Shown piece after piece: positions 2,355 through 58,925 of a DNA stretch of 64,000 bases. The stretch spans positions 89,983 to 153,982 of the forward strand of contig VMFS01000003.1 of the NCBI GenBank assembly GCA_007376185.1. Direction: 5' to 3'. The notes under the pieces were generated by a model. It saw only the letters and a list, made by a program, of their open reading frames with translations. It searched no databases and was not told the DNA's origin. Position 1 is the stretch's first letter. Each line of letters begins with the position of its first letter. This DNA comes from Parcubacteria group bacterium Gr01-1014_30 (GTDB lineage Bacteria > Patescibacteriota > Minisyncoccia > Minisyncoccales > 2-12-FULL-40-12). The position numbers were made by a program, and so were the translations under genes.

Positions 2355-3320
2355 CTAAAGGTTTCTCAGCTTTCGCATAAGAGCGAAAACGTCTGCCTGA
2401 CGGTTGTCTGATTGCAAAAGAACTATGGCAAAGGGCTCTTCTTTAACCAAAAACACTCCTGCGAAAGTTTGTTTAGCTTTTAACAAATACCCCGTTTTTC
2501 CGCCTACAAAAGCCGAAAGGGGATAGAAATTATTCACGTTCTGAAACTTGAGCTGATTTCCGTTTCTATCTGGCAGCCAAAAGTCGTTGTTTTTCGTGAT
2601 TTCTAGAATTTCAGGATAGCTTTTGTAAATATAAGTCACGAGCTTGGCGAGGTCAGCCGAGGTTGAGACGTTGTCGGCGCTCAAGCCACTGGAGTCATAA
2701 AAAACGGTATTTGCCATTCCAAGGTCTTTAGCTTTTTGGTTCATTTTCTCAACGAACTCTTGCTTTCCCAGAAGGTAAGTCAGGGCTTCTGCAGCGTCGT
2801 TTGACGACTGAATCAGAGAGGCCTTCAAAAGATTTTCCGCGCTTACTTTTAAACCCGGATACAGCGAAGGGCTCCAACCTAAGGGCTTGAGCATTTGGGC
2901 GGTTAAGGTTATTTTCTGTTCATAGAGGCCATTTTCTTGCGATATTAAGGCCGTCATCAGCTTTGTTACGGAAGCTACGGGCAAGGGTTGGTTTGGTTTT
3001 TTTTGTGCTAAAACCGAGTTGTCGGAAAGACGAACCGCGATATACGAGGATGCGCCCACTTCCTGCCGAGCCTGCATGTTCAAAAGCAGCGATTGGAGGA
3101 GTTGTACTTCAAATTTCAAAATTTCTATTTGACGTTGCAACGTTTGTACTGTCAACCCCGTTAGAAAGTAATTTTCCAAACCAGTGAAAACAATATTTGT
3201 TTTATTGGGATGGTGATGCGAGCTTTCTAACGGGGTTGACGCTTGAACCATCCCCGTGTTAAAATGAAAGAGTGACAGTATAGCTAAAGATAGCAAGGTA
3301 AACTGGATTTTCTGTTTCAT
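2355..3320 (-). CDS. D-alanyl-D-alanine carboxypeptidase (peptidase S11, PBP5-like)
   Basis: SxxK (SVTKLMT), SxN (SSNDAA) and KTG (GGKTGY) motifs. N-terminal signal peptide. Confidence 0.85.
   Translation of the reverse strand: MKQKIQFTLLSLAILSLFHFNTGMVQASTPLESSHHHPNKTNIVFTGLENYFLTGLTVQTLQRQIEILKFEVQLLQSLLLNMQARQEVGASSYIAVRLSDNSVLAQKKPNQPLPVASVTKLMTALISQENGLYEQKITLTAQMLKPLGWSPSLYPGLKVSAENLLKASLIQSSNDAAEALTYLLGKQEFVEKMNQKAKDLGMANTVFYDSSGLSADNVSTSADLAKLVTYIYKSYPEILEITKNNDFWLPDRNGNQLKFQNVNNFYPLSAFVGGKTGYLLKAKQTFAGVFLVKEEPFAIVLLQSDNRQADVFALMRKLRNL
3156..3235. repeat. Palindromic element, family 1 (CCCCGTTAGAAAG...CTTTCTAACGGGG), inside the peptidase CDS
   Basis: 18-nt inverted arms at 3151-3168 and 3223-3240. 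Same termini occur at 34025-34134 and 44046-44128. Confidence 0.7.
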
Positions 3321-3392
3321 AACCTCATTATACTAAAATGTTCAACGAATCAAAGATTCTTTTCACCTTTTAATAAATTTCCATTTATTAAA

Positions 3393-3590
3393 ATGTTTGA
3401 CTACAAAAAACACGTTTCCACCAGCCATTGCTCTTCTTGCCACGGCCAAGGAGATGGTTTCAAATGCGTTGAATGCGGCCAGACCTCTGACAAACACGAC
3501 CCAAACCATTGGAGGAATTGCGAAAAGGGAGGAAAGATGAAGGTAAGGTGCAAAAAATGTGGCGAGGCAGAAGACAACTGCCCTTGTTGA
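3393..3590 (+). CDS. Small Cys-rich protein, possible zinc-ribbon or metal-binding
   Basis: 65 aa with CSSC, CVEC, CKKC and CPC pairs. Ends 8 nt before the RBS and start of the next gene. Confidence 0.45.
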   Translation: MFDYKKHVSTSHCSSCHGQGDGFKCVECGQTSDKHDPNHWRNCEKGGKMKVRCKKCGEAEDNCPC

Positions 3591-3597
3591 GGGAGTA

Positions 3598-4464
3598 ATG
3601 AGAAAATCCATATTGCTTTTATTTTTGGCAGCCCTTGTTTTGGGTGTTTTGTTTTTTTGGAGCAGTAGTTTGGACTTTTACTCAAAAATAGGCCTGGGTC
3701 TTTTGCAAGTTCAAGAAGATACGGGCGTTTTACTCAAAGAAGTCAAAGAACAGGTGTCTGCTCCGGCTCCTTTGATCATTGAGAAGCGTCTGCCAGAGTC
3801 CTTTTTAACTCAAGCAGGTGTGGTTGAGTGGACAAATGTCCAAAGAGTAAAGAACGGTCTGCCAGCTCTTCGCGAAAATGCCCAGCTCAACACGTCAGCT
3901 TTAATTAAAACAGAAGACATGATTGCCAAACAGTACTTTGGGCACGTTTCTCCCGAAAGGGAGGGAGCAGGTGATTTTGTGAACAAGGCAGGTTATGAGT
4001 TTGTGGCCATTGGAGAGAACTTGGCTTTGGGCGATTTTGAAAACGAAGAAATCCTTGTGCAAGGATGGATGGATAGCCCTGGACACAGAGCCAACATTCT
4101 GAACTCTCAATACCAGGAAATCGGCGTTGCCGTCCTGAAAGGAGAATATCAAGGAAGAGTAACCTGGTTGGCTGTTCAGCATTTTGGTAGGCCGGCTTCT
4201 TCATGCCCTGCGCCTTCTGAAGCAGTTTTGTCAGAAATAAAAGAAAACCAAGGGAGTATAGAAGAATTTGATTCTATTTTGGCGGAACTTCGCCAAGAGA
4301 TTGACTCAATGCGCCCCAAGCGCGGCCCTGAATACAACAGAAAGGTTGATGAGTATAACGCCCTTGTTGCGCAGTACAACTTGTTAATTGACCAAACCAA
4401 AGCTTTAATTGAGCAGTATAATGCAAAAGTCCAGCAATTCAACCAGTGCGTTCAGGGAGGGTAG
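3598..4464 (+). CDS. CAP/SCP/PR1-like domain secreted protein
   Basis: GAGGGAG RBS then ATG 3598. Signal/TM helix. GHVSP...GENLA...GWMDSPGHRANIL CAP-domain signature. Confidence 0.8.
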   Translation: MRKSILLLFLAALVLGVLFFWSSSLDFYSKIGLGLLQVQEDTGVLLKEVKEQVSAPAPLIIEKRLPESFLTQAGVVEWTNVQRVKNGLPALRENAQLNTSALIKTEDMIAKQYFGHVSPEREGAGDFVNKAGYEFVAIGENLALGDFENEEILVQGWMDSPGHRANILNSQYQEIGVAVLKGEYQGRVTWLAVQHFGRPASSCPAPSEAVLSEIKENQGSIEEFDSILAELRQEIDSMRPKRGPEYNRKVDEYNALVAQYNLLIDQTKALIEQYNAKVQQFNQCVQGG

Positions 4465-5113
4465 TAGAAGTAGGGAGCGTAAAAAGCGGGCGCTGATAGT
4501 TATTCAAGTTTTGAAAAAGCTTTTTCCAAAAGCCAAAATTGTTTTGAATTACTCAAATAACTGGGAGCTTTTAGTGGCGGTGGTGTTGTCGGCTCAGTGC
4601 ACCGACAAAAAAGTAAACGAAATTACCCAAGCACTTTTCAAAAAATACAGAACCTTGCAGGACTACGTAAAAGCCGACCAAAAAGAGTTTGAAGAAGATA
4701 TTAAGTCAGCCGGGTTTTACAGAAACAAAGCAAAAAACATCTTGGCTTCAGCACGAATCGTCAAAGATAAGTTTGGAGGCCAAGTGCCAGATACCATGGA
4801 AGGGCTTTTGCAACTTCCTGGTGTTGCCAGAAAAACCGCCAACATAATTTTAGGAAACGCTTTCGGAAAAGTTGAAGGCATAGCCGTTGACACGCACGTT
4901 CGGCGTCTCTCTAGAAAACTTGGTTTGACCGACAACCAAGACCCCAATAAAATAGAGCGCGATTTGATGGGGCTTTTGCCCAAAACAGAGTGGTTCAACT
5001 TCACTTACCGTTTGATAGACTACGGCAGAAAATTTTGTCCGGCAAGAAAACACAACTGTCAAAACCACCCTCTAACTAAAATCTGGCCCAAAGCCGCTGA
5101 CATTTGGCCATAA
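4409..5113 (+). CDS. nth: Endonuclease III (HhH-GPD DNA glycosylase)
   Basis: LLVAVVLSAQCTDKKVN, LPGVARKTANIILG and GIAVDTHVRR motifs. Start is uncertain because it overlaps the upstream gene. Confidence 0.85.
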   Translation: MSSIMQKSSNSTSAFREGSRSRERKKRALIVIQVLKKLFPKAKIVLNYSNNWELLVAVVLSAQCTDKKVNEITQALFKKYRTLQDYVKADQKEFEEDIKSAGFYRNKAKNILASARIVKDKFGGQVPDTMEGLLQLPGVARKTANIILGNAFGKVEGIAVDTHVRRLSRKLGLTDNQDPNKIERDLMGLLPKTEWFNFTYRLIDYGRKFCPARKHNCQNHPLTKIWPKAADIWP

Positions 5114-13472: not shown

Positions 13473-13501
13473 TTGACAGAAATTTGATTATATGCTATAC
13501 T
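13473..13501 (+). promoter_or_regulatory. Cassette A promoter
   Basis: TTGACA (13473-13478), 17-nt spacer, TATACT (13496-13501). Confidence 0.55.
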
Positions 13502-13506
13502 TCTTC

Positions 13507-13703
13507 CATTGAGTCGCACTTTGACAACTATAACTTTTGCTACTTGCAAAAACTTGCGAAAAGTCGCCATGGCTTTTTGGGTTCAATTTTGTTCGCTGAA
13601 AGCTTTGCTTTCCTCTCACCCCCTGCGCTAAAGTTTGGGGTTTTGAAGCTGAAAAGCTGTGGCGACATACCGTTGCCCGGTTCATCCGAAGGAGGATGAC
13701 GCC
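13507..13703 (+). promoter_or_regulatory. Cassette A conserved structured leader
   Basis: CATTGAGTCGCACTTTGACAAC...TGCTACTTGC...GTCGCCATGGC (13563-13573) pairs with GCTGTGGCGAC (13656-13666). AAGGAGG at 13689-13695. Shared with the other two cassettes. Confidence 0.6.
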
Positions 13704-14177: not shown

Positions 14178-14235
14178 TACTTAGGTCTTGTTCCTTGGGT
14201 TTCGTGCCCTTGGAACTTGGCCGCACTCATTAAAT
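14170..14235 (+). promoter_or_regulatory. Cassette A conserved trailer (stop-codon box plus imperfect hairpin)
   Basis: GCAAGTAGTA (14170-14179) is complementary to leader 13538-13547. GGTCTTGTTCCTTGGG/CCCTTGGAACTTGGCC forms a stem with U-U mismatches. About 93% identical to 39526-39590. Confidence 0.55.
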
Positions 14236-14275
14236 GGGGCTGTGTCTGTTCGTTAGACCAGCCCTTTCTTTTTAT
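14236..14275 (+). terminator. Cassette A hairpin terminator
   Basis: GGGGCTGTGTCT-GTTCGTT-AGACCAGCCC followed by a T-run. Hairpin sequence is conserved in all three cassettes. Confidence 0.65.
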
Positions 14276-15613: not shown

Positions 15614-15813
15614 CCCCGCCCTTACTTTGCGATTGCGCTATTTTGCGAAGCGCGAGCGGCGAATAGCCGCATCCCGTTCATGGGCGCAGCGCTTCGCCCG
15701 CTCAAGCGACAGCGCAGAGTATAAGAAGAGATTTATCTCTTCGCCCAACAAGGGGTGCACCTATTCGGTGCGCGCACTGCGCAAAATAATACAAGGGCAA
15801 AGTAAGGGCGGGG
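15614..15813. repeat. 200-nt palindromic element, family 4 (CCCCGCCC termini)
   Basis: Arms CCCCGCCCTTACTTTGC / GCAAAGTAAGGGCGGGG. TTGA on both flanks (15610-15613, 15814-15817). Confidence 0.7.
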
Positions 15814-16467: not shown

Positions 16468-16545
16468 CCCCGTAATACAACTTCGACTCGCTTCGCGATT
16501 ACAGGATTTTCTAAAAGAAAATCCTGTCGAAGATGATATACGGGG
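16468..16545. repeat. Palindromic element, family 2 (CCCCGTAATACAAC...GATGATATACGGGG)
   Basis: Inverted arms. TTGA on both flanks (16464-16467, 16546-16549). A related copy lies at 45190-45298. Confidence 0.7.
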
Positions 16546-16573
16546 TTGACTTTTTTTGACTCATGAGTATAAT
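16546..16573 (+). promoter_or_regulatory. Cassette B promoter
   Basis: TTGACT (16546-16551), 16-nt spacer, TATAAT (16568-16573). Confidence 0.55.
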
Positions 16574-16578
16574 TGTTT

Positions 16579-19945: not shown

Positions 19946-20419
19946 ATGCTTGTTTTGCAAGCTCTAAAAGAACCAAAATACCTAGCTTTGGCCGTTGTTT
20001 TTGCGGTTTTGGTAATGTCGCTTTACGCTTTTTTGCAGGTTTTGCCCCAAGGCGTGAATAATTTTTGGTTCTGGTTTACACTGCTCACGCCTTTGGCTTG
20101 GCTGCTTTACGTGGTTTACGGAATTTTGTTTGGGGTTACCTTATCATTTTTCATCTGGCAGAGAGTTAAAAAAAATTACCCCTCATCTAAAGCTGTGAAA
20201 GGAGGTTTATTGGGCGCTTTGGGCGGCGTTCTGGGGACAACGGCGCCGGTCTGCTCAGCTTGTCTGCCTTGGGCGGTTTTACTGTTGCCGGCAAGCCTTG
20301 CTTTTCCTTTTGTGCAGTACAACTCCCTGATTATGACTTTCAGCATTGGTTTACTCATTTTGGCCCTTTGGCTTTTGGGAGGGTTCACCCCCACACCAAA
20401 TGAGGATATCCGCACCTAG
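19946..20419 (+). CDS. Polytopic membrane protein with a CxxC motif
   Basis: About 4 TM helices and a CSAC motif, directly downstream of the DsbA-like gene. The last ~10 codons and stop lie in repeat 20388-20473. Confidence 0.4.
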   Translation: MLVLQALKEPKYLALAVVFAVLVMSLYAFLQVLPQGVNNFWFWFTLLTPLAWLLYVVYGILFGVTLSFFIWQRVKKNYPSSKAVKGGLLGALGGVLGTTAPVCSACLPWAVLLLPASLAFPFVQYNSLIMTFSIGLLILALWLLGGFTPTPNEDIRT

Positions 20420-20473
20420 GGGCTTCGCCCCGGTGCGTTTATCGTGAAACGAATCCTCGTTATGGTGTGGGGG
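20388..20473. repeat. Palindromic element, family 3 (CCCCCACACC...GGTGTGGGGG)
   Basis: Inverted arms with a GGGGCTTCGCCCC centre. Copies at 46525-46638 and 55552-55637. Confidence 0.7.
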
Positions 20474-20483: not shown

Positions 20484-21077
20484 ATGTCTAAGTTCGCTGA
20501 GCCTTCGGTTCCTCTCGCGCCTCGCTCTACTCCGCAGAGCCCGGCAGAAGAGTACAAGTTAAAACGGCAGGAAAAGATCCAAGCAAAAGATGCCGAAAAG
20601 CAGAAAAGAAGAATTAAAAAAACTGCAAAAAAGGCAGGAGTGGTTTTGTTAGTTTTGGCTGCATTGTTATTGTTTGGGGGCGGCTGGTATCTAGTTTCTA
20701 AAGTCGAGCCGGCTGAAAAGTCAGACATTGTCTCAAGAACCCCGATTCACTGGCATCCCGAGCTGAAAATTAAAATTTTGGGAGAGTATCAAGAAATACC
20801 GGCAAACATCGGCATTGGCATTGTTCACCAGACGCTTCACACTCATGACCCGGACGGTATAATTCATATTGAGCCAACAGGTTTGGTGCGGGAAAATGAT
20901 ATTAAACTTGGAAGATTTTTTGAAATATGGGGCAAAACTTTTAATGAAAGCTGCATTTTTGAATACTGCTCGGGCCCTCAGGGTCAAGTGAAAATGTTCG
21001 TTAACGGCGAGCCAAATTTTGACTTTGAAAATTACATAATGCGCGATGGGGATAGGATCGAGATTATCTTTGAATAA
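20484..21077 (+). CDS. Membrane-anchored hypothetical protein with a His-rich C-terminal domain
   Basis: Lys-rich N-terminus, one TM helix, then IHWHPELKI...HTHDPDGIIHIE. The first ~12 codons overlap an inverted fragment of the 25108-type repeat. Confidence 0.5.
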   Translation: MSKFAEPSVPLAPRSTPQSPAEEYKLKRQEKIQAKDAEKQKRRIKKTAKKAGVVLLVLAALLLFGGGWYLVSKVEPAEKSDIVSRTPIHWHPELKIKILGEYQEIPANIGIGIVHQTLHTHDPDGIIHIEPTGLVRENDIKLGRFFEIWGKTFNESCIFEYCSGPQGQVKMFVNGEPNFDFENYIMRDGDRIEIIFE

Positions 21078-21210
21078 TCAAAGGTCGTTAATCGTTAATA
21101 GTTTATCGTTTAGCGCGTCCCGTTTCGTTAAAAGTTAAGGGTTAACGGCCCCAAAACGCTAAACCCTAAACGATACGGGCATCGCTAAACCCTAACCGCT
21201 AAACGCAATT
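21078..21210. repeat. TAAACG/CGTTTAGCG-rich palindromic element
   Basis: Shares CGTTTAGCG...CCCGTTTCGT...ACGATACGGG...ATCGCTAAACCC..GCTAAACG blocks with 45527-45660. Confidence 0.6.
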
Positions 21211-21216
21211 TATATC

Positions 21217-21663
21217 ATGCAACAAAAAACGCTTATTGGTATAATAATTATTGCCGTTGTCATCGTCGGCGGCTACTTGCTTTGGACTGGATCTCAAAGG
21301 CAATCTGAGTTGCCAGAGATTGTTCTGCCGCCATCACTGGAAACGGCTCCCCAAGAACTTCCGCAAAAGGAAGCGACAGCTCCGGAAATCAGAGAAATTG
21401 CGGTTTCGGGCAAGGAATTCAGCTTCGACCCCGCCTCAATAACTCTTTCTGAAGGCGAAAGAGTAAGAGTTGTTTTCACCAACGTTGGCCAAGCTCCTCA
21501 TGACTTCACCATTGAGGGCTTGGGAATTAAAACACAGGTTATAGGGTTTGGTCAAACCGACTCGATTGATTTCACGGTTCCGGCTTCGGGGGTCTACACT
21601 TTCTTTTGCTCTGTTGCCGGCCACAGGCAAGCAGGCATGGAAGGCGACTTGACAGTTGAATAG
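21217..21663 (+). CDS. Cupredoxin (plastocyanin/azurin-like blue copper protein)
   Basis: TM/signal helix. Cu ligands are H (QAPHDF) and C-x4-H-x4-M (FFCSVAGHRQAGM). Confidence 0.8.
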   Translation: MQQKTLIGIIIIAVVIVGGYLLWTGSQRQSELPEIVLPPSLETAPQELPQKEATAPEIREIAVSGKEFSFDPASITLSEGERVRVVFTNVGQAPHDFTIEGLGIKTQVIGFGQTDSIDFTVPASGVYTFFCSVAGHRQAGMEGDLTVE

Positions 21664-25041: not shown

Positions 25042-25065
25042 AGAAGGGAGTCGCTCGGCAACGAA

Positions 25066-25239
25066 GTTTTCAGTCACCGATAGTCGCCTCGTCCAGCGAC
25101 TCGGCGCTATCTGCATTCCCGAGTTTTCGCGAAGCGAAAACGAATGGCGAGAGGAACCGAAGGTTCAGCGAGCTCGGCGGCAAATTCTTCGCTACGCTCA
25201 GAAACCATGCTTTGCCGCCTGCGAAAGCTGTCTGAAAAC
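25066..25239 (+). repeat. ~170-nt conserved structured element, copy 1 (upstream of pgi)
   Basis: Near-identical blocks to 48223-48393. Closing stem GTTTTCAG/CTGAAAAC. One internal hairpin differs between copies but stays paired. Confidence 0.6.
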
Positions 25240-25261
25240 TTGTTGCCGAGCTTGAAGCGAG

Positions 25262-25449
25262 TTATGAGTAATTTTGCAAATCTTACGAAGGTGAAGTATA
25301 CATACTTAATCGCCGAACAGGAAAAGTGTCTAGTCGGAAAACCCCGCCCGTCCGCAGATGGGCGGGGGCAAACGGAGTACTGGACAATTTTCCGTGGTGA
25401 GGCGTTATGCGTCCTTCACCGCAGCACCAATTCGCAAAATTACTCATAG
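25262..25449. repeat. 188-nt palindromic element nested between the 170-nt element and the pgi start
   Basis: Arms TATGAGTAATTTTGC / GCAAAATTACTCATA. CGAG on both flanks (25258-25261, 25450-25453). Confidence 0.65.
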
Positions 25450-33102: not shown

Positions 33103-35121
33103 ATGTATACGTCAATTCGAAACTACGGCATCATAGGTAATTTAAGGTCGGCGGCTTTGATTTCAAAAGATGGCTCCATTGACTGGCGGCCTTTTCCGCA
33201 TTTGGATTCTCCCGCGGTATTTTCAGCCATACTTGACGACGGAAAAGGCGGTTCTTGGAAAATCGCGCCAGAGGGCCCTTACGAATCGGAGCAGGAATAT
33301 TTGGGCAACACCAACATTTTGGTGACAAGATTCCGAACGAAGCAAGGAGTTGCAGAGTTGACCGATTTTATGCCCGCGCAGCCGGGCAGGGAAATGCCAG
33401 AGATTGAAAAAAACGAAATCAGGCGCCGCGTCTCGTGCGTCAAGGGCCTTTGCCGCTTGCTCGTGGAGTTTGCGCCAAGGTTTGACTGGGGACAAGGCGA
33501 GACCAAACTCGTCCGCACGCAACGCGGCTTAAAAGTAGAGAAAGAAGGCCAAGTGAGAGGAGAACTGCTTTCTCCGGGGGAGTACGCAGTTGAAAACAAC
33601 GTGGGCAGAGCGGAATTGGAATTGCGAGAAGGCCAGGTTGTTTATCTCACTTTTCACTACCACGAAGTTGCAGAGCTCGCCTGGCCCCAAGAACATTACG
33701 AATACGAGCTCACCGAAACCAAGAAATTTTGGTCCGACTGGGTTCACCACTGCGAGATTTCAAAGTGTCCTTTTGCCGGGCCCTGGCACGACTTGGTTGT
33801 GAGGTCTTCTCTAATGCTGAAAATTCTTTTTTTTGAACCGCCCGGCTCCATTGCCGCCTCGGCCACCACCTCGCTCCCGGAAACAATAGGCGGCGTCAGA
33901 AACTGGGACTACAGGTTCTCATGGATACGCGACTCTTCTTTTGTTCTGCAGGCGTTGATTTTGCTTGGTTACAAAAACGAGGCGGCAAAGTACCTGGATT
34001 GGCTTTTGAAAAAATGCTGCTCAACTCCGTTAGAAACCTCACAAACAAGTAGGTATTACCACTCTTCAGAGACGAAGTCGGCTTCGCCTTACAAAAAAGA
34101 TACTACCTTTAGGTCTGGTGGGTTTCTAACGGGGTCAACCGACAACGGTTTTGAGCCAAGCAAGTTCCAGGCCTTATACGGCCTAAGAGGCGAAAAAGAC
34201 CTCTCGGAAAAAGTTCTCGCGCATTTGGAGGGATACAAGGGCTCAAAGCCCGTGAGAGTCGGGAACGAGGCGTTTTTGCAGAATCAGTGGGACATTTACG
34301 GTTCTTTGGCAGATACGGTGTGGAGAATGGTTCGCTTGGACCCTTCTTACGAGCTGGAGCCCGAAACCTGGGGAGTTCTTTTGAAACTTGCAGATTACGT
34401 GTGCCAGATTTGGCGAGAGCCCGACGAAAGCTTGTGGGAAATGCGCGACGGCAAAAAACATTTTGTGTATTCCAAAGTAATGTGCTGGGTGGCTTTGGAC
34501 AGAGTTTTGAAAATAGCTGAACGCTATGGGTTCGCTGACCTTCGATCGTCGAGCCGAAGGCGAGACGGGAGAAGAAACTTGTTTCTGCGACCATCTCACG
34601 CCCAGCGCTTCGCTAGGGCCTTTGAAGGAGAAATTAAGCTGTGGTCTGGCGAAATGGAAAAGATTCACAAAGCAGTTATGAAAAGGGGCTGGTCTGAAAA
34701 GAAGCGCGCCTTTGCGCAGGCCTTTGATTCAGACGACATTGACGCTTCGGTTTTGCTTCTGCCAGCCATGGGTTTTATACAGGGAACTGACGAGCGTATG
34801 ATTTCCACCATTGAAGCGGTTCAAAAAGAGCTGTCAGCTGGCAACGGCTTGCTCTTTCGCTACAAAACACCGGATGGGCTTCCGGGGCAGGAAGGCGCTT
34901 TTTTGCTTTGTTCTTTCTGGCTTGTTGACGCTTTGGCTTTTGCCGGAAAAAGAGAACTCGCCTTAAAAAATCTTGAAAGCGTGGCAAAAATGGCCAACCA
35001 CTTGGGTTTGTATTCTGAAGAAATTGACCCCAAAACAATGGAGTTTTTGGGAAACTTCCCTCAGGCCTACACGCACATTGGCTTAATCAACAGCGTTTTC
35101 TACCTGTCCGGCGCGAGATAA
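33103..35121 (+). CDS. Glycoside hydrolase family 15 (glucoamylase/trehalase-like)
   Basis: YGIIGNLRSAALISKDGSIDW N-terminus. RNWDYRFSWIRDSSF. (alpha/alpha)6 C-terminal motifs. Confidence 0.85.
   Translation: MYTSIRNYGIIGNLRSAALISKDGSIDWRPFPHLDSPAVFSAILDDGKGGSWKIAPEGPYESEQEYLGNTNILVTRFRTKQGVAELTDFMPAQPGREMPEIEKNEIRRRVSCVKGLCRLLVEFAPRFDWGQGETKLVRTQRGLKVEKEGQVRGELLSPGEYAVENNVGRAELELREGQVVYLTFHYHEVAELAWPQEHYEYELTETKKFWSDWVHHCEISKCPFAGPWHDLVVRSSLMLKILFFEPPGSIAASATTSLPETIGGVRNWDYRFSWIRDSSFVLQALILLGYKNEAAKYLDWLLKKCCSTPLETSQTSRYYHSSETKSASPYKKDTTFRSGGFLTGSTDNGFEPSKFQALYGLRGEKDLSEKVLAHLEGYKGSKPVRVGNEAFLQNQWDIYGSLADTVWRMVRLDPSYELEPETWGVLLKLADYVCQIWREPDESLWEMRDGKKHFVYSKVMCWVALDRVLKIAERYGFADLRSSSRRRDGRRNLFLRPSHAQRFARAFEGEIKLWSGEMEKIHKAVMKRGWSEKKRAFAQAFDSDDIDASVLLLPAMGFIQGTDERMISTIEAVQKELSAGNGLLFRYKTPDGLPGQEGAFLLCSFWLVDALAFAGKRELALKNLESVAKMANHLGLYSEEIDPKTMEFLGNFPQAYTHIGLINSVFYLSGAR
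34025..34134. repeat. Palindromic element, family 1, inside the GH15 CDS
   Basis: CTCCGTTAGAAACC...GGTTTCTAACGGGG. TCAA on both flanks (34021-34024, 34135-34138). GGCTTCGCC centre. Confidence 0.7.
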
Positions 35122-43926: not shown

Positions 43927-45525
43927 ATGGCTAAAAAGAGACGAAAAACCGTTAGAAAAAAGAAGACTCGCGCCAACCTGAAGAATAAGGCGAAAAAGAT
44001 AAAACAGCCAAAACCCGCGCTAAAAGAAGCGGTTGATGAGGTTAACCCCGTTAGAAAGAAAATTAGTCATCACAGGATGGGGAAAATGAAACATACGGAG
44101 CGGTTGTCAAGCGAGCTTTCTAACGGGGTTAAAAAGACCAGAATCAGGGTTGTTGGTGTTGGCGGGGGCGCCGGAAACATTGTGTCGGAGCTTGCTTCGC
44201 GGCTAAAGAAAGCGTCTTTCGCTGTTGCCAACACCGACCGCCAGGCGTTAAGGCAGTTGCGTAAAAACGTTTTCACCCTCCAATTTGGTCAAAATCTCAC
44301 TCACGGTTTGGGCACCGGCATGAACGCGGAACTGGCTTGGTCAGCCGCCTTCGAGGAAAAAGAACGTTTAAAAAAACTCTTTGAAGGGTATGATTTGTGC
44401 ATCTTGATATCCTGCCTTGGAGGCGGCACGGGTTCTGGAGCGGCTCCAGTGCTTGCCAATTTAGCCAAGAAGGCAGGCTCTTTGACTTTGGGTGTGTTTA
44501 CTTTGCCTTTTAAGTTTGAGGGAGAGAAAAAAGAAGAGCAGGCAAAAGAAGCTTTGCAGAAACTGAAAGGAAGCGTCAACGCCATAGCTATTTTGCCAAA
44601 CGACAGGATTTTTCAGACGATTGAGAAAAGCACCCCTTTGCAGGAAGCTCTGTCTTTCATAAATAAAAACTTGGCCGACGCGTTGGAAGGATTGATTGAG
44701 ACGATTTATCTTCCCGGATTAATCAACATTGACTTTGCCGACTTGCAGACGATTTTACAGGGTCGGGGCAAAGTTGCCTACTTAAACACTGCAAAAGTGC
44801 AGGGTCCTGGAGGAGCATCCGAAGCGGTAGAGAAAGTTCTTAACTCCCCTTTGTACCCATACACAATAAAAGGCGCCAGACGTGTGCTGTTTAACATTAC
44901 GGGCGGCAGAGAGCTGGCGCTCTCAGACGTTTCTGAAATTTCGCGGCTTATCTTTGAGCAGGTTTTTTCACAAGCCCAGATTATTTTTGGCGTAACCCAA
45001 GGGCAAAAATCTTCAGACTGGCTTAGAGTTTCTCTTTTGGCAACGGGGTGTCAGGCAAAGGGGGTAGTAGAACCCCTGGAGGAGGTTCACTACCTCCCAG
45101 GGATTTTTTCCAAAAGGGGAGGGCGTGGGACGCAGGCCAAAGCGAAGCCAAGAGCGAGAAAGAAAAAGAAACCAAGACCTAGACCAAAGTCCCGTAATAC
45201 AACTCTCGGTGCGCTCCGTCCCGTAGAATCACCCGCAGGGAGCTCTACGGGGTTCCGCGCGAAATCGCCCAAGGGCGCCCGAAAGATGATATACGGGGCA
45301 AAGCCGTCAAAACCGCAAAAGCAAAAGCCGAAACCTAAGGCGAAGCGCAAACCAAAACCCAAACCCAGGAAAATCAAACTCACGGTCGAGGAAGAAAAAG
45401 CTGAGGACAAAGTGAGGAAAAGCGCTTTGCAGGTGAAGGAAGAAAAGGAGGTGGCGGAAAAAGAGTTTCTGGAAAAGGAGAAATTTTGGGAAATCCCGGC
45501 TTTTTTAAGAAAACAAAAGACATAG
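43927..45525 (+). CDS. ftsZ: Cell division protein FtsZ with long basic N- and C-terminal extensions
   Basis: VVGVGGGAGN and GGGTGSGAAPVLA tubulin signature. K/P-rich tail. Confidence 0.9.
   Translation: MAKKRRKTVRKKKTRANLKNKAKKIKQPKPALKEAVDEVNPVRKKISHHRMGKMKHTERLSSELSNGVKKTRIRVVGVGGGAGNIVSELASRLKKASFAVANTDRQALRQLRKNVFTLQFGQNLTHGLGTGMNAELAWSAAFEEKERLKKLFEGYDLCILISCLGGGTGSGAAPVLANLAKKAGSLTLGVFTLPFKFEGEKKEEQAKEALQKLKGSVNAIAILPNDRIFQTIEKSTPLQEALSFINKNLADALEGLIETIYLPGLINIDFADLQTILQGRGKVAYLNTAKVQGPGGASEAVEKVLNSPLYPYTIKGARRVLFNITGGRELALSDVSEISRLIFEQVFSQAQIIFGVTQGQKSSDWLRVSLLATGCQAKGVVEPLEEVHYLPGIFSKRGGRGTQAKAKPRARKKKKPRPRPKSRNTTLGALRPVESPAGSSTGFRAKSPKGARKMIYGAKPSKPQKQKPKPKAKRKPKPKPRKIKLTVEEEKAEDKVRKSALQVKEEKEVAEKEFLEKEKFWEIPAFLRKQKT
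44046..44128. repeat. Palindromic element, family 1, inside the ftsZ N-terminal extension
   Basis: CCCCGTTAGAAAG...CTTTCTAACGGGG. TTAA on both flanks (44042-44045, 44129-44132). Confidence 0.7.
45190..45298. repeat. Palindromic element, family 2, inside the ftsZ C-terminal tail
   Basis: TCCCGTAATACAAC...GATGATATACGGGG. CAAAG on both flanks (45185-45189, 45299-45303). Confidence 0.65.
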
Positions 45526-45526
45526 A

Positions 45527-45660
45527 AGTTAATGGTTTAGCGTTAAGCGTTTAGCGAAGCCCGTATCGTGAGGCGTCAAAGGTTTAGCGCAAAAGACGCT
45601 AAACGTTAAACTCTTAACGAAACGGGTATCGCTAACCCATAAACGCTAAACGAAACTAAC
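45527..45660. repeat. TAAACG/CGTTTAGCG-rich palindromic element, copy 2
   Basis: Shares its blocks with 21078-21210. Fills the whole ftsZ-nnr intergenic space. Confidence 0.6.
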
Positions 45661-46524: not shown

Positions 46525-46638
46525 CCCCCACACCTACTCCACTGAAAATTTGAGGTAACTCAAGTACGTAAGGCGAAGCCGCCTATCGGCTTGATTATTA
46601 TTTATTACCACAAGTCCTCGCAAGAGTAGGTGTGGGGG
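46525..46638. repeat. Palindromic element, family 3
   Basis: CCCCCACACCTACTC...GAGTAGGTGTGGGGG. Starts right after the nnrD stop (GTGA). Its right end abuts TTGACA-17-TATAAT. Confidence 0.7.
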
Positions 46639-47068: not shown

Positions 47069-48223
47069 ATGTCATTTGACTCTGTTGTAAAAAAGGTAAG
47101 AGCTAAGCAGATTCTTGATTCAAGGGGGAAAAAGACGGTTGAGGTACAACTGACAACCGGCTTGGGAAAGTTTTTGGCTTCTTGCCCTTCAGGCACCTCT
47201 ACTGGTAAGTACGAAGCCAGGACCGTGGAAGTTAAAGAAGCCCTTGAAAATATAAACCGTATTATTGCTCCTGTTCTTCTGGGCAAATCGGCAGCTAACC
47301 AAAAGGAAGTTGACAAGGCGCTTGATAAAAAACTGGGCGCCAACGCGACTTTGCCTGTTTCCATTGCGGTTTCAAGAGCCGGAGCGAAAGCGAAAAATAT
47401 TCCGCTTTGGAAATATATTTCTAGAATCGCCCGAACAAAATCCCAGTTCCCAAAGCCGGCTGTTCTGCTGATTGAAGGGGGATTGCACGGGAAAACAGAA
47501 CTTGACATTCAGGAATTTATGATGATTCCGGAAGGAAGAACATTTCGCGAGCAGTTTTCAACGGGCAAAAAAATATACGAAAAGTTAAAGAAAATTTTAA
47601 GGAACAAGTTCGGCAAGAAGGGAGTTGTAACCGGCCTGGAAGGCGCTTTCAACCCTCCGATTTCAGATGTAAGAGCGGCGCTTGATTTGATAATGGCCTC
47701 GGCCAGGGGCTATAATGTAAAAGTCGGCTTGGATTACGCCGCTTCAAATATAAAGAAGGGGAAATATAATATCGCTTTTTACCAAAAACTGGTTAGAGAT
47801 TACCCAATTTTATTTCTGGAGGATCCTTTCGGCGAAGAAGATTGGAATAAATGGGAAGAACTAAACTACAAACTAAAAACTACCAACTACAAACTTTTAG
47901 TTGTTGGCGATGATCTGACCGTAACGAATTCTAAAAGAATTAGAATGGCTCACAGAAAAATGGCCTGCAACGCTGTAATCATTAAGCCAAATCAAATCGG
48001 CACGGTTTCAGAAACGATTGAGGCCTCATTGTTAGCAAAAAGTTACGGCTGGAAAACGATTGTTTCCCATCGCGCTGGTGAAACCAAAGACGATTTTATT
48101 GCCGACTTTGCAGTCGGCATTGGAGCGGATTTCATCAAGGCTGGAGCGCCTTCGCAGAAAGAAAGAATGGCAAAATATAATAGATTGTTGAGAATAGAAA
48201 AAGAACTTCGTTCGGCAATATAG
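47069..48223 (+). CDS. eno: Enolase (short form)
   Basis: SRGKKTVEV...PSGTSTGKYEA, IKPNQIGT and SHRAGETKD motifs. Confidence 0.9.
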   Translation: MSFDSVVKKVRAKQILDSRGKKTVEVQLTTGLGKFLASCPSGTSTGKYEARTVEVKEALENINRIIAPVLLGKSAANQKEVDKALDKKLGANATLPVSIAVSRAGAKAKNIPLWKYISRIARTKSQFPKPAVLLIEGGLHGKTELDIQEFMMIPEGRTFREQFSTGKKIYEKLKKILRNKFGKKGVVTGLEGAFNPPISDVRAALDLIMASARGYNVKVGLDYAASNIKKGKYNIAFYQKLVRDYPILFLEDPFGEEDWNKWEELNYKLKTTNYKLLVVGDDLTVTNSKRIRMAHRKMACNAVIIKPNQIGTVSETIEASLLAKSYGWKTIVSHRAGETKDDFIADFAVGIGADFIKAGAPSQKERMAKYNRLLRIEKELRSAI

Positions 48224-48393
48224 TGTTTAGCCACCGATAGTTCAAATCTCCAGCGAGATTTGAACTATCTGCATTCCCGAGTTTTCGCGAAGCGAAAACG
48301 AAGGGCGAGAGGAACCGAAGGTTCAGCGAGCTCGGCGGCTGATTCGCTTGTGGCGAAACCATGCTCATCCGCCTGCGAAAGCTGTCTGAAAAC
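48223..48393 (+). repeat. ~170-nt conserved structured element, copy 2 (upstream of the gpm-like gene)
   Basis: Aligns with 25066-25239. An outer stem GGCAATATA (48214-48222) / TATATTGCC (48394-48402) differs from copy 1 but is also complementary. Confidence 0.6.
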
Positions 48394-48411
48394 TATATTG
48401 CCTCACTCCTT

Positions 48412-55483: not shown

Positions 55484-55867
55484 CAGAGTTCTTATCCGGC
55501 TGGCTTCCTTTTTAACGGCAGGGCTTTCGTGTTCGCCGCTGTGGGCCCTCACCCCCACACCATAACGAGCAGCGGCTTCGCCGTTTACGCCACGGGACGA
55601 AGTTCCTAGCGGCGTATCTGCTCGTTTGGTGTGGGGGTAGCTGGGGCGCTTTTGGTCAAGGTGTAAGTTAAGGTGGAGAGCGCTGCCTTCCGTTTTGGCG
55701 TATATGTGAAATCGCGGGAAACCGCCCCGCGCCAAAGCTCTGACGGCTGACGTTTCCTTTGCACTTTCGTCAAATCGTTTGAAAGAGTAGCCGATTTTCC
55801 TCAACGCGCCAGCCAAACTATTCCGGCAATTTTCCACGACAATTTTCATAAGCTGATAAATATACAC
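55457..55867 (-). CDS. Hypothetical protein carrying a family 3 palindromic insert
   Basis: 136 aa. FPRFHIY...LNLHLDQK region. The central PHTKRADTPLGTSSRGVNGEAAARYGVGV is encoded by repeat 55552-55637. Confidence 0.4.
   Translation of the reverse strand: MYIYQLMKIVVENCRNSLAGALRKIGYSFKRFDESAKETSAVRALARGGFPRFHIYAKTEGSALHLNLHLDQKRPSYPHTKRADTPLGTSSRGVNGEAAARYGVGVRAHSGEHESPAVKKEASRIRTLLNGSFRSG
55552..55637. repeat. Palindromic element, family 3, inside a CDS
   Basis: CCCCCACACCATAACGAGCAG...CTGCTCGTTTGGTGTGGGGG with a GCGGCTTCGCCG centre. Confidence 0.7.
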
Positions 55868-57445: not shown

Positions 57446-57516
57446 TCGGGCCAGGGCGAATCGAACGCCCGCTGTACCCACCCCAAGGGCACGGACTACC
57501 ATTATCCGATGGCCCG
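57446..57516 (-). tRNA. tRNA-Pro (anticodon GGG)
   Basis: Manual cloverleaf on the minus strand. Acceptor CGGGCCA/UGGCCCG. Anticodon loop UUGGGGU. T-loop UUCGAUU. No encoded CCA. Confidence 0.85.
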
Positions 57517-57518: not shown

Positions 57519-57713
57519 TTACTTTCTCTTTTTAGCTGTTGCTTTGATGCATTTGGCGCAAGCCAAAACACGTTTGCCGTTGAGCAATCTGGTCCACTGC
57601 AAATTGGGATATTGTCGCCTTTTGATGGTTGGGTTATATTTGGTGGCTCTTAGGCGAACTCTTCGCCAGACCAGCATTGACCCTTTGCCGCAAATCGCGC
57701 ATTGTTTTGCCAT
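57519..57713 (-). CDS. rpmB: Ribosomal protein bL28
   Basis: MAKQCAICGKG...RR...PNLQ pattern. 64 aa. Confidence 0.85.
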   Translation of the reverse strand: MAKQCAICGKGSMLVWRRVRLRATKYNPTIKRRQYPNLQWTRLLNGKRVLACAKCIKATAKKRK

Positions 57714-57748
57714 ATGAAAAATGTTAACATATTAGCATAGTTTTTTCA

Positions 57749-58348
57749 ATGCGTATTACTTATTCAGAAGAAGAGCTTATTCATCTTTTGCACGCGTGGG
57801 CTGCAATCAGCTTTGCATTTGCTGTTGCTTTATCTGGCGGAGCGCAGGGGCTTGGCCCGCAATTCATGCCAAATCTTATTGTGGCGGCAATCGCAGTGGG
57901 CACGGCTTTTTTGCTGCACGAGCTGGCTCACAAGATTTTGGCGCAAAGATACGGCTGTTGGGCGGAGTTCAGAAAGTTTAATATGGGTTTGGTTTTGGCG
58001 GTTGTTATGAGTTTTTTCGGTTTCATCATCGCGGCTCCGGGAGCCGTAATGATTAGCGGCGCAATTTCCAGGGAGCAAAACGGCAAAATATCTGCAGTTG
58101 GCCCTTTAACAAACATTGCTTTGGCGTTATTGTTTTTTGCTGCCAGTTTTTTACTGCCGCCGATTATTGGAGGTTCACCTTTGCTTGCCAAAATTGTAAC
58201 CTACGGTTTTTACATCAACGCCTGGCTCGCTTTGTTCAATATGATTCCTTTTCCTCCGCTTGACGGTTCAAAAGTGCTGGCTTGGTCTTTGCCCGCGTGG
58301 CTTATCATCACGGCAGTCGCCGCCTTTATGATTTATGTAAGCGGTTGA
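57749..58348 (+). CDS. Site-2 protease-family (M50) membrane metalloprotease
   Basis: HELAHK zinc motif and [12 protein letters not shown] motif. Multiple TM helices. Confidence 0.8.
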
Positions 58349-58383
58349 CTTTGTCAGAGTTATTTGATAAAGTTTTTTTTGTT

Positions 58384-58794
58384 ATGCCAACCATTCATCA
58401 ACTAATCAAAAAAGGCAGGAAAAAAATCGTTAAGCGCCACAAGACGCCTGCTTTGACTTTCGGTTTTAACGTTTTGAAGAACAGGCCAAAAGATTTTCAT
58501 TCGCCGTTCAAGCGGGGAGTATGCATTAAAGTTTTCACGGTTACTCCTAAAAAGCCCAACTCGGCTTTGAGAAAAGTTGCGAGAGTCCGCTTGACCAACG
58601 GCATGGAAGTTACCGCTTACATTCCGGGCGAAGGGCACACCTTGCAGGAACATTCTGTGGTGCTCATTCGTGGGGGCAGAGTTAAGGACTTGCCCGGAGT
58701 CAGGTACCACGTAGTACGAGGTGTACTTGATACAGGCGGAGTAGAGGGACGCAAACAGGAACGTTCAAAATATGGGACCAAGCGAAGTAAATAA
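58384..58794 (+). CDS. rpsL: Ribosomal protein uS12
   Basis: [12 protein letters not shown]...[10 protein letters not shown]...[13 protein letters not shown]. Confidence 0.95.
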
Positions 58795-58925
58795 ATCCGA
58801 AGCACGAAGCACGAAATCCGAAACAAATCCCAATGACCAAAATTCAAAATTCTAAATACGTTTTGAATTTAGAAAATTAGAATTTAGACATTGTTTCGAA
58901 TTTCGGTATTCGAATTTCGAATTTT
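58795..58925. repeat. AT-rich palindromic element filling the rpsL-rpsG spacer
   Basis: CGAAATCCGAAACAA / TTGTTTCGAATTTCG arms. Shares the GAAATCCGAA motif with the mnmA insert. Confidence 0.55.

Follow-up and report, generated by a model that had tools for sequence, protein, structure and literature searches.

Most described bacterial MITE families are limited to one genus or species. Integron attC sites, which occur in many phyla, act as folded single strands; these imperfect palindromes measure 57-141 bp and combine conserved ends with a variable interior. Rickettsia palindromic elements (RPEs) are in-frame palindromic inserts in unrelated housekeeping genes, whose products tolerate the additional peptide segments (PMC10969869). 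Natural occurrences of the DNA mini-hairpins have been documented for single-strand origins of phages and plasmids as well as for promoters (PMC13037366). Finally, piggyBac transposons have CCC ends and create a 4-bp TTAA duplication, and IS1380 forms the prokaryotic outgroup in a piggyBac transposase phylogeny (PMC10813416).

The window analysed here, a stretch of 64,000 nt from a groundwater Parcubacteria genome (candidate phyla radiation, CPR), carries roughly a dozen very short mobile palindromes, all non-coding, that duplicate 4 bp on landing. A preliminary description had grouped at least nine such elements by a near-central GCGAAGC motif and, for most of them, CCCC(C/G)...(G/C)GGGG ends. 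These ends are present in six of the nine listed elements (E2, E3, E4, E10, E12 and, as a CTCC variant, E6), but E5, E7 and E11, which have no CCCC clamp, represent repeats of other types, so that the nine do not form a single class. The best explanation, to which we assign a probability of roughly 0.7, is that the CCCC...GGGG palindromes are non-autonomous foldback MITEs, which are moved in trans and in which the GAA-triloop motif is accessory. This set comprises E1-E4, E6, E8, E10, E12 and E16 in at least four terminal-repeat families: family B (terminal repeat CCCCGTTAGAAA; E1, E6, E8), family A (CCCCCACACC; E4, E10, E12), the E3 family (CCCCGTAATAC; E3, E16) and E2 (CCCCGCCCTTAC). The earlier pattern also took in repeats of separate types, namely family C (E5, E11), E7, E9/E14 and E13.

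Within family B (all MITE copies are listed without strand) E1 (3156..3235, 80 nt, CCCCGTTAGAAAG...CTTTCTAACGGGG) lies in the 5' part or promoter region of a D-Ala-D-Ala carboxypeptidase gene and is free of GCGAAGC, its flanks TCAA/TTGA being inverted. The CTCC variant E6 (34025..34134, 110 nt, duplication TCAA, motif 34081(-)) forms a 38-codon in-frame insertion in a GH15 glycosidase, while E8 (44046..44128, 83 nt, duplication TTAA, motif absent) is read through in frame within the N-terminal extension of FtsZ and has a decayed counterpart at the matching site of a 59%-identical FtsZ gene. The family A copy E4 (20388..20473, 86 nt, CCCCCACACC...GGTGTGGGGG) is flanked by TTCA/TTTCA, is the source of the 3' end of a 154-aa ORF and contains the motif at 20422(-) as GGGGC-TTC-GCCCC; E12 (55552..55637, 86 nt, flanks CTCA/TAGC, no duplication left), which is 76% identical to E4 in inverted orientation, carries it at 55575(-) within a side hairpin. 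In E10 (46525..46638, 114 nt, flanks (G)TGA/TTGA, motif 46573(+)) the stop codon of a dehydratase gene serves as the left flank, and a 12/12 promoter begins with the right flank. A similar arrangement is seen for the foldback element E2 (15614..15813, 200 nt, terminal repeat CCCCGCCCTTACTTTGC, motif copies 15645(+) and 15691(-)), whose left TTGA overlaps the TGA stop of an aminotransferase gene and whose right TTGA begins an 11/12 promoter. The right TTGA of E3 (16468..16545, 78 nt, CCCCGTAATAC...ATATACGGGG, duplication TTGA) likewise begins an 11/12 promoter, and its motif at 16490(-) is part of the side hairpin TCGC-TTC-GCGA. The second copy of the E3 family, E16 (45190..45298, 109 nt, TCCCGTAATACAACT...GATGATATACGGGG, duplication CAAAG), is a motif-free 38-codon in-frame insertion in the C-terminal linker of FtsZ.

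The insertion event itself can be read from the GH15 orthologue of a relative (82% amino-acid identity). Its empty site is ...TGC TCAA CCGAC..., where the window has ...TGC TCAA (110-nt E6) TCAA CCGAC...; both window GH15 insertions (E6, E7) are missing in the orthologue, with a clean TCAA duplication at one of the two sites. The direct flanks reported previously were recovered as TTGA (E2, E3), TTAA (E8), TCAA (E6) and CAAAG (E16), while (G)CGAG at E13 requires the left side to be shifted by one base, and neither E1 (TCAA/TTGA) nor E12 (CTCA/TAGC) showed a direct repeat.

Furthermore, pattern searches of GTDB genomes (family B) and of JGI metagenomes (family A) yielded more than 120 loci for each family across at least nine phyla. 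Identical 4-bp flanks were found for 67 of the 121 family B copies with readable flanks (4 more with 5 bp) and for 68 of 124 family A copies, corresponding to 55% in both families. Together with the empty site, these 135 identical flanks in about 245 copies bear out the earlier proposal that the flanks are true duplications, unlike IS200/IS605 insertion. A real duplication is required because rare tetranucleotides (CTTG, CAAG, CTCG, CCCA, TATG, CATA) are also repeated exactly on both sides. Insertion proceeds via a staggered cut that duplicates 4 bp or, now and then, 5 bp. Read in one orientation, the target is TTNA, or more narrowly TT[T/C/G]A, followed by a pyrimidine (105 of 115 sites), and plain TTAA is rarely duplicated (3/135). 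In 1.7 Mb, inverted repeats with identical flanks go with a single terminal 4-mer, CCCC (158 cases versus at most 2 for any other); further CCCCG... variants are present in the same 1.7 Mb, and eight family B copies reside on family A contigs (0.77 Mb of family A loci). Among the observations that count against this model are the following: flanks are non-identical in about 45% of the census copies, with an unexplained TTYA...TRAA bias (25 times versus the reverse once), and family B interiors are mostly mutually unrelated (88/125 singletons), unlike a burst from one master copy.

The landing sites comprise -35 promoter boxes, stop codons and in-frame positions inside genes, with two in-frame inserts each in the GH15 glycosidase and in FtsZ. 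Copies are retained at sites of little cost: at the very TTGA of -35 hexamers, where the duplication rebuilds the promoter, on TGA stop codons, and within genes when element plus duplication is a stop-free multiple of three. A -10-like box is located 16-18 nt downstream of 15 of 17 TTGA duplications. Between 15 and 21% of the census copies are read through (25/118 in family B, 18/116 in family A), and among these the length plus 4 is divisible by 3 in 20/25 and 14/18 cases, respectively (Fisher p = 2e-4 and 4e-3).

Several repeats of the window fall outside the MITE set. E9 (45535..45651, between ftsZ and the NAD(P)HX dehydratase gene, motif 45554(+)) is a palindrome built from GTTTAGCG words, to which E14 (21087..21222, motif absent), composed of GTTTAGCG-type words, is related; both are without CCCC ends. 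E13 (25263..25448, 186 nt) is a separate inverted-repeat element with TATGAGTAATTTTGCAAAT arms and direct GCGAG flanks, and does not contain the motif. E7 (34530..34619), a 90-nt in-frame insertion in GH15 with its motif at 34607(-), is likewise devoid of CCCC ends (E7, E9, E13 and E14 are listed without strand). Its first roughly 17 nt are similar to a module of family C. The two full copies of that family are E5 (25053..25251, + strand, about 200 nt), which is intergenic upstream of pgi and contains TTTTCGCGAAGCGAAAA (motif at 25129) and AACCGAAGGTT, and E11 (48214..48402, + strand, motif 48287(+), CCGAAGG at 48315), which fills the eno-gpm intergenic region. A partial core module with CCTTCGG is situated at 20488..20526 (- strand), at the start of ORF 20484-21077.

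For family C (E5 and E11, perhaps with E7 and the 20488 fragments) a structured non-coding RNA or a cis-regulatory leader of glycolytic genes may tentatively be considered; the family would then not be a transposon and its GAA triloops would be RNA hairpin loops. The core is highly conserved, with 87% identity between E5 and E11 over the aligned region, both copies are on the coding strand and lack CCCC ends and a clear duplication, and compensatory changes occur in the closing stem and an internal stem, e.g. CGCC...GGCG versus TTCAAATCTC...GAGATTTGAA. Hairpin-templated correction can, however, also yield paired changes in DNA palindromes without selection. An Rfam search returned no match even at E <= 1, homologues were found neither in 1.7 Mb of related loci nor in viral contigs, full copies number only two, and core fragments lie within coding sequence. 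We rate this reading as possible, with a chance of about one in four.

The motif was located at all ten positions given in the preliminary description (15645, 15691, 16490, 20422, 25129, 34081, 34607, 46573, 48287 and 55575), with an eleventh copy in E9; about nine instances are independent, because E5 and E11 belong to the same family. Inside the elements, 11 copies in 1,754 nt compare with 0.71 +/- 0.83 expected from dinucleotide shuffles of the elements themselves (0 of 2,000 reach 11, maximum 5), and the density is 6.3 per kb within versus 0.16 per kb outside. GCGAAGC accounts for half of the GC-NNN-GC heptamers within the elements, about 35-fold over the remaining window, and no other such heptamer exceeds 4 copies or about 9-fold enrichment; the effect is specific to the GAA loop. 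CCGAAGG, the sister mini-hairpin, shows 15-fold enrichment, and perfect hairpins in which C(GAA)G or C(TTC)G closes a stem of 4 bp or more were counted 11 times versus 2.7 +/- 1.5 expected. The GAA-triloop module (GCGAAGC, CCGAAGG) is a real, strongly enriched internal trait of repeats in this Parcubacteria lineage, common to unrelated repeat families and recurring in a close relative, on whose contig a further CCCC family, the fifth, carries a TTTTCGCCTTCGGCGAAAA hairpin. Longer words are also common to different families, namely the 14-mer CGGCTTCGCCTTAC (E6/E10), TCGCTTCGCGA (E3/E5/E11) and CAGCGCTTCGC (E2/E7).

According to the preliminary description, GCGAAGC would be a conserved apex hinting at elements that act as single-stranded DNA (or RNA) hairpins; on this reading the motif would be functional, nucleating or marking a structure recognised by the mobilising or replication machinery. 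The unusual stability of d(GCGAAGC) invoked there is documented (Tm 76.5 C), and such mini-hairpins occur in single-strand priming signals, e.g. phage G4 ori and ssiA (PMC13037366). The loop-specific enrichment in several unrelated repeat families, extending to CCGAAGG, and the similar hairpin of the close relative's element are in line with this view; nevertheless, we consider it unlikely. The motif is present in 0/122 family B and 4/125 family A copies elsewhere, and the copies without it (122 and 121) have duplications that still look fresh. Some family A copies do have in common a terminal stem and two internal hairpins, but in the census of family B the apical loops vary and most of the interior lacks structure (median z = -0.48). 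The proposed near-centre location holds for about half of the elements, the relative position ranging from 0.18 to 0.9: the E7 motif straddles the right boundary, and those of E3 and E12 sit in side hairpins. On the leading strand five GAA and six TTC versions were counted, i.e. no preference relative to a uniformly positive GC skew. Furthermore, the motif-free E1, E8 and E16 keep intact ends, E8 and E16 (not E1) also direct flanking repeats. Because the same families elsewhere do without it, the motif neither defines nor moves the MITE families, and its near absence elsewhere and the lack of strand bias point to a lineage-specific hairpin module, not to a conserved functional apex. Its accumulation in this lineage possibly reflects selection for a stable folding nucleus, module exchange between repeats or binding by a host factor; the MITE model leaves the cause of the enrichment unaccounted for.

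With respect to mobilisation, the reported absence of a transposase from the window was corroborated among the called genes and holds likewise for 11.6 kb of flanks; neither the window nor these flanks nor 1.7 Mb of related loci yielded a transposase or an autonomous element with matching ends. A DDE-type transposase would move the foldback MITEs in trans, its gene residing at another place in the genome or in the community. Single-strand mobilisation by an HUH Y1 enzyme (RAYT or TnpA), with the elements as REP/REPIN-like or IS200/IS605-derived palindromes (PATEs), appears highly improbable. The apparent duplication would then consist of the target tetranucleotide and an element-borne end, which is impossible for the exactly repeated CTTG, CAAG, CTCG, CCCA, TATG and CATA. 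The asymmetric target (TTNA, then pyrimidine) does recall IS200/IS605, and the hairpin folding and the non-identical flanks in about 45% of copies would also agree, but the ends are true terminal inverted repeats instead of separate left-end and right-end hairpins, and a Y1 or RAYT gene was not found among the called genes.

That the shared motif arises from chance or from the composition of GC- and CpG-rich palindromes deserves practically no credence: the elements are richer in G+C (0.51 versus 0.45) and CG dinucleotides than the remaining window, and the whole-window excess is modest (21 copies versus 12.1 +/- 3.8 expected, reached in 2/100 shuffles), but the shuffles of the elements themselves refute it, the motif being commoner inside them than base composition predicts, a point on which the preliminary description had let its pattern depend, and the other GC-NNN-GC heptamers do not follow.

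Comparing the foldback MITEs with known systems, they resemble integron attC sites as imperfect palindromes with conserved ends and variable interiors across phyla. Unlike attC (RYYYAAC...GTTRRRY), their core motifs are arranged the opposite way (GTT...AAC), and they show 4-bp duplications and are scattered over genes and promoters, without cassette arrays or a nearby intI. With the d(GCGAAGC)/d(CCGAAGG) mini-hairpins of Hirao and co-workers the repeats share the exact heptamers, usually extended to small, here predicted, stems, but they are dispersed in the chromosome, unlike the documented cases.

To our knowledge IS1380, the bacterial piggyBac relative, is the only family combining CC-type ends with 4-5 bp duplications, and an IS1380/piggyBac-like enzyme acting in trans is a candidate. 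The elements also start with CC(C), their duplications are AT-rich and 4-5 bp long, and their targets are one-base variants of TTAA. On the other hand, the ends of ISEcp1 are CCTAGA...TTTAGG and two other IS1380 members start with CCTGAAT; these ends resemble CCCCG.../CCCCCACACC only in CC, and they go with duplications of 5 bp. The vicinity of the copies yielded no IS1380-type transposase (PF13701), and plain TTAA makes up only 3/135. We regard this resemblance as a lead and not as membership.

Like RPEs, the elements provide in-frame inserts, here two each in GH15 and FtsZ and 15-21% of census copies; they differ in showing no sequence relation, in occurring in other host clades, in their clear terminal repeats with 4-bp duplications and in being mostly intergenic. 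Bacterial MITEs in general (e.g. Correia/NEMIS, RUP, MITEAba12) are likewise non-coding, 75-200 nt long, able to fold back, bounded by terminal inverted repeats and a target-site duplication, present in several copies per genome and of influence on promoters and gene ends. Unlike these, the elements here have no known parent IS, 10-13 bp terminal repeats identical across at least nine phyla around mostly unrelated interiors, and several terminal-repeat families which have just the CCCC ends and the target in common.

The insertion of palindromic elements into coding DNA can be followed directly in the GH15 gene, which holds E6 (34025-34134) and E7 (34530-34619). Its open reading frame encodes 712 aa, compared with about 605-620 aa in homologues, the closest named ones belonging to Yanofskybacteria, Wildermuthbacteria and other Patescibacteria. 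Since the homologues begin at M41, 40 of the excess residues are attributable to an upstream start call, and the rest is accounted for by two clean inserts (38 and 30 residues), neither of which is present in an 82%-identical orthologue. The orthologue's DNA has the empty E6 site ...TGC TCAA CCGAC..., and the window has the filled one, ...TGC TCAA, followed by the insert CTCCGTTAGAAAC...GTTTCTAACGGGG and then TCAA CCGAC.... The E6 locus is thus a textbook filled/empty pair with a 4-bp duplication, as expected of a MITE, and the insertions of E6 and E7 are recent. A sequence search of the GH15 protein against the PDB gave no match, and Pfam and the close homologues served instead.

The FtsZ gene (43927-45525) is interrupted in a similar manner, encoding 532 aa compared with 430-455 aa in relatives; the encoded protein is identical to one listed by NCBI for Parcubacteria group bacterium Gr01-1014_30. 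E8 (44046-44128) lies in the N-terminal extension, and E16 (45190-45298), situated in the C-terminal linker between CAAAG repeats, is an in-frame insertion of 38 codons that is missing from five FtsZ homologues. A 59%-identical FtsZ gene on a fetched locus (L271) holds at 190-285 a decayed copy of the E8 family at the same N-terminal site, with the right end TTTCTAACGGGG intact and the left end eroded. Some insertions are therefore old, or the site was struck repeatedly, the shared position reflecting a hot spot or an insertion retained since ancient times.

These inserts belong to a set of CCCC...GGGG foldback elements, which are told apart by their terminal repeats. E1, E6 and E8 form family B with the ends CCCCGTTAGAAAG...CTTTCTAACGGGG, E4, E10 and E12 form family A with the ends CCCCCACACC...GGTGTGGGGG, E3 and E16 share ends of the type CCCCGTAATAC..., and E2 is a 200-nt singleton with the arms CCCCGCCCTTACTTTGC. 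E16 is not among the elements listed in the preliminary description. The elements measure 78-200 nt and carry perfect or near-perfect terminal repeats of 10-17 bp, and the three families are represented by 3, 3 and 2 copies in 64 kb, all of which are properties of MITEs. Of the nine elements listed earlier as mostly ending in CCCC(C/G)...(G/C)GGGG, six have such ends and the other three do not. Elements without CCCC ends are the 90-nt insert E7 and the two family C copies E5 and E11 (about 190-200 nt each), the likeness between E7 and family C being weak beyond about 17 nt. E13 (25263-25448) is an inverted-repeat element of 186 nt, whose 19-nt arms are 95% complementary and whose direct flanks are GCGAG, the left one being offset by one base; its core is the hairpin CCCCGCCCGTCCGCAGATGGGCGGGG, and it lies directly 3' of E5, before pgi. 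E9 (45535-45651) and E14 (21087-21222) are palindromes composed of repeated words of 7-8 nt (GTTTAGCG, TTAAGCG, TTAACG). In a distant relative (L271 1637-1777), the ftsZ-dehydratase spacer is occupied by a palindrome that is similarly designed but composed of other words (TTTCGTAA, GTACGAA), and the resemblance suggests that this may be a conserved architecture, e.g. arrays for protein binding.

Two-ended patterns of both families were searched for in other genomes and metagenomes. Among the matches listed, the family B pattern was found in more than 120 stretches of GTDB species genomes and the family A pattern in more than 120 JGI metagenome contigs, and the two families share contigs. The 80 titled family B loci among these matches, counted by title, stem from Patescibacteria (about 26), Desulfobacterota or 'Deltaproteobacteria' (23), Planctomycetota (10), Omnitrophota (4), Gammaproteobacteria or Pseudomonadota (4), Nitrospirota (2), and Elusimicrobia, KSB1 and Stahlbacteria (1 each). 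In viral contigs, the family A pattern returned only low-complexity GGGGGTGTGGGGG lookalikes and the family B pattern a single contig. The interiors of family B copies are for the most part unrelated to one another, 88 of 125 being singletons, and mostly lack strong structure. Minimal family A forms of 28-36 nt, in which CCCCCACACC and GGTGTGGGGG are separated by a few bases, and a tandem array of such units with TAAA between them occur at L155 505-532, L237 5583-5610, L234 7186-7221 and L195 4007-4106. Literature searches with the terminal-repeat strings, or on MITEs of CPR bacteria, yielded nothing relevant.

Identical 4-bp flanks were found for 67 of 121 and 68 of 124 copies in the censuses of families B and A, respectively, among the matches listed. 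Together, these 135 of about 245 copies and the empty E6 site with its TCAA bear out the transposon reading and the true target duplications proposed in the preliminary description. The duplications are mostly 4 bp, rarely 5 bp, and in the fetched DNA they are associated with CCCC ends only, of which further CCCCG... variants exist. TTTA, TAAA, TTCA, TGAA, TTGA and TCAA are the commonest identical flanks, rare tetranucleotides being repeated exactly as well, and plain TTAA is a rare target in the censuses. Once oriented, the target reads TT[T/C/G]A, and the next base is a pyrimidine in 105 of 115 sites. Of the copies whose flanks are not identical, 25 showed TTYA...TRAA and one the reverse. 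Inversion between copies, hairpin-templated correction and a piggyBac-like carry-over of donor flanks were each considered for this bias and rejected, as each predicts both orientations equally.

Of 17 TTGA duplications, 15 supply the initial four bases of a -35 hexamer and have a -10-like box at a distance of 16-18 nt on the downstream side. The promoters that E2, E3 and E10 adjoin in the window match the consensus at 11/12, 11/12 and 12/12 positions, respectively, and the left duplication copies of E2 and E10 hold the TGA stop codons of the upstream genes. Furthermore, an open frame reads through about 15-21% of the census copies, and in these the length plus four is divisible by three in 20 of 25 (family B) and 14 of 18 (family A) cases. 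This strong enrichment indicates that the in-frame behavior seen in GH15 and FtsZ is general. Evidently, the CCCC-ended MITE families combine an unusually wide phylogenetic spread with in-frame insertion as in Rickettsia palindromic elements and a precise landing on -35 boxes.

The mini-hairpin motif GCGAAGC (complement GCTTCGC) follows a different pattern. All ten positions at which it had been reported were confirmed, and an eleventh copy was found inside the palindrome E9. For the window as a whole the excess is modest (21 copies, expected 12.1 ± 3.8). Within the elements, however, 11 copies fall into 1,754 nt, compared with 0.71 ± 0.83 in 2,000 dinucleotide shuffles of the same elements, none of which reached 11; the remaining 62 kb hold ten. 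The frequency in the elements is hence above the expectation from composition. Half of all GC-NNN-GC heptamers within the elements are GCGAAGC, a 35-fold enrichment over background, and CCGAAGG, the other sequence documented to form a compact DNA mini-hairpin (PMC13037366), is enriched 15-fold. Judged by sequence, 11 GCGAAGC and 3 CCGAAGG heptamers would thus be exact candidates for such hairpins inside the elements, and of perfect small hairpins with a C(GAA)G or C(TTC)G closure there are 11, compared with 2.7 ± 1.5 expected. The window has a G+C content of 0.42-0.48 and a GC skew that is positive throughout, and the motif occurs on the leading strand in balanced numbers of GAA and TTC versions (5 and 6). 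Only about half of the elements have the motif near the middle; E3 and E12 carry it in a side hairpin, and E7 has it across the right edge. At its core the observation is real, though the elements are heterogeneous.

The suggestion that the motif is a conserved hairpin apex is not supported by the comparison with copies elsewhere. Among the matches listed, GCGAAGC/GCTTCGC was present in 0 of 122 family B and 4 of 125 family A copies, and the 5-mer CGAAG/CTTCG occurred in 18 of 125 family A copies, near the approximately 20 expected by chance according to a rough estimate by hand. Consequently, the motif is no part of the definition or movement of these two families. In this genome, longer words bearing the motif cross family lines: CGGCTTCGCCTTAC is common to E6 (family B) and E10 (family A), GGCGAAGCCGC to E10 and E12, TCGCTTCGCGA to E3 and family C, and CAGCGCTTCGC to E2 and E7. 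A 4.6-kb contig of a close relative (L131) contains two copies, at 3698-3776 (79 nt) and 4385-4459 (75 nt), of a fifth CCCC family, CCCCGTAGTGAATTTT...AAAATCTACTACGGGG, with duplications of the TTGA type, and a TTTTCGCCTTCGGCGAAAA hairpin is present in one of these copies. In the nearest metagenomic relative of E4 and E12, GCGAAG is retained at the homologous position. The enrichment of GAA mini-hairpins alongside the MITEs is clade-specific, and most economically the motif is a lineage-specific hairpin module, which was inherited or exchanged among the repeats of the clade or is favored by a factor particular to it.

For family C, a structured RNA is a reasonable rival to a mobile repeat. Over their aligned region, E5 and E11 reach 87% identity, and their highly conserved core holds both mini-hairpin sequences (TTTTCGCGAAGCGAAAA, AACCGAAGGTT); paired, compensatory changes distinguish the two copies in the closing stem and in one internal stem. 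The copies lie in intergenic regions, on the coding strand, E5 upstream of pgi and E11 between eno and gpm, whose true start is 48412; these sites and the compensatory changes speak for an RNA. However, two copies are too few, a homologue was absent from 1.7 Mb of related DNA, and Rfam 15 covariance models matched only a tRNA-Ala in the window, both at the gathering score and at E ≤ 1. A family C 22-mer had no match in viral contigs either. The Rfam tRNA model was silent even at E ≤ 1 for a tRNA-Pro(GGG) called by ARAGORN at 57446-57516 (-). Three paralogous cassettes (13496-14314, 16568-17264 and 38739-39670) each consist of a conserved promoter and leader, CGCACTTTGACAAC...ACTACTTGCGAAAAGTCGCCATAGC, followed by a small ORF without a Pfam family (157, 160 and 219 aa); each ends with a conserved trailer that has a T-run and a terminator-like GGGGCTGTGTCTGTT..TTAGACC.GCCCC hairpin, and two of these trailers are 92% identical over 157 nt.

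As stated in the preliminary description, no transposase gene was found; the called genes of three stretches (window positions -2.5 to 40.1 kb, 41.9-47.5 kb and 51.1-73.1 kb) included no transposase or integrase family. A Pfam rescan at E ≤ 1 of ten ORFs in or beside the window, most of them without a recorded Pfam hit, unveiled no transposase, the sole hit above threshold being a LAGLIDADG fragment already on record as a weak hit; a Cupredoxin_1 match (E = 7e-4) was below the cut-off. A free-standing LAGLIDADG homing-endonuclease-like ORF of 118 aa lies at 22299-22655 (-), between sodA and a ferredoxin gene (PF14528, E = 3.6e-6), and a type I restriction-modification operon (HsdM, HsdS, HsdR), with MazE/Fic and RadC genes upstream, spans 61063-68800 and beyond (L133). 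An autonomous parent IS with the same terminal repeats was found neither in the window and its flanks nor in the 1.7 Mb of loci, in plasmids or in viral contigs. Pairs of terminal repeats 250-6,000 bp apart with matching flanks, taken as parent candidates in all loci, enclosed ordinary genes between two MITEs, and a comparison of ORFs between loci gave no recurrent neighbor. No parent element came up in plasmids when the sequences of the two commonest subfamilies were used as BLAST queries.

The genomes of CPR/Patescibacteria are small, and the usual description is that they contain little mobile DNA. The present 64 kb holds about a dozen MITEs, which reside within FtsZ and a glycosidase as well as exactly on -35 boxes. 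Identical short terminal repeats occur in Patescibacteria, Desulfobacterota, Planctomycetota, Omnitrophota and other phyla, which points to an unusually broad-host mobilizing system that is not known to have been tied to an enzyme. Through these elements, in-frame insertions into proteins arise outside Rickettsia, and both gene calling and statistics on protein length can be confounded by them in metagenome-assembled genomes. The lineage-specific build-up of an unusually stable DNA mini-hairpin in unrelated repeats poses a small puzzle on how palindromic DNA is shaped.

Among known systems, IS1380, a family with CC ends and 4-5 bp duplications, resembles the elements with their CCCC ends and 4 (rarely 5) bp duplications. 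ISEcp1 has the ends CCTAGA...TTTAGG, two other IS1380 members start with CCTGAAT and have 5-bp duplications, and ISEcp1, IS1678 and an IS of Lactiplantibacillus plantarum all have CC starts and 5-bp duplications. Beyond CC, however, the terminal repeats have nothing in common with those of the elements, no PF13701-type protein was linked to any copy in the loci or the window, and a phmmer search of 2,299 ORFs of both, with the transposase of ISEcp1 as the query, found nothing; homology searches with ISEcp1 recovered no relative below 83% identity and are uninformative for distant IS1380 members. The likeness is therefore a resemblance and not membership. The piggyBac transposons, for whose transposase phylogeny IS1380 was taken as the prokaryotic outgroup, have CCC ends and a TTAA duplication (PMC10813416). 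With Rickettsia palindromic elements the GH15 and FtsZ inserts share stop-free, in-frame insertion into genes (PMC10969869), a likeness in behavior only. RAYT-mobilized REP/REPIN sequences were rejected in view of the duplications and the lack of a Y1/RAYT family among the called genes. PATEs derived from IS200/IS605 insert 3' of a fixed tetra- or pentanucleotide without duplication and lack terminal inverted repeats; here, the two flanks repeat rare tetranucleotides exactly and the elements end in true terminal repeats, so that this HUH-type origin was rejected as well. Integron attC sites, with R'' RYYYAAC 5' and R' GTTRRRY 3' in cassette arrays beside intI, are dismissed by the opposite motif order (GTTAGAA left, TTCTAAC right), the scattered copies and the lack of an integrase among the called genes. 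A further reading, which we regard as unlikely, is that the CCCC...GGGG elements constitute a pan-bacterial superfamily without a conventional parent IS, which would be recognized mainly by its foldback shape, CCCC ends and asymmetric TTNA-pyrimidine target and moved by an unrecognized enzyme, possibly host-encoded or piggyBac-like, the GAA mini-hairpins having been acquired in this Parcubacteria lineage as signals for single-strand folding or priming. If true, such a superfamily would explain why unrelated interiors have identical short ends in at least nine phyla, and also the TTYA...TRAA bias.
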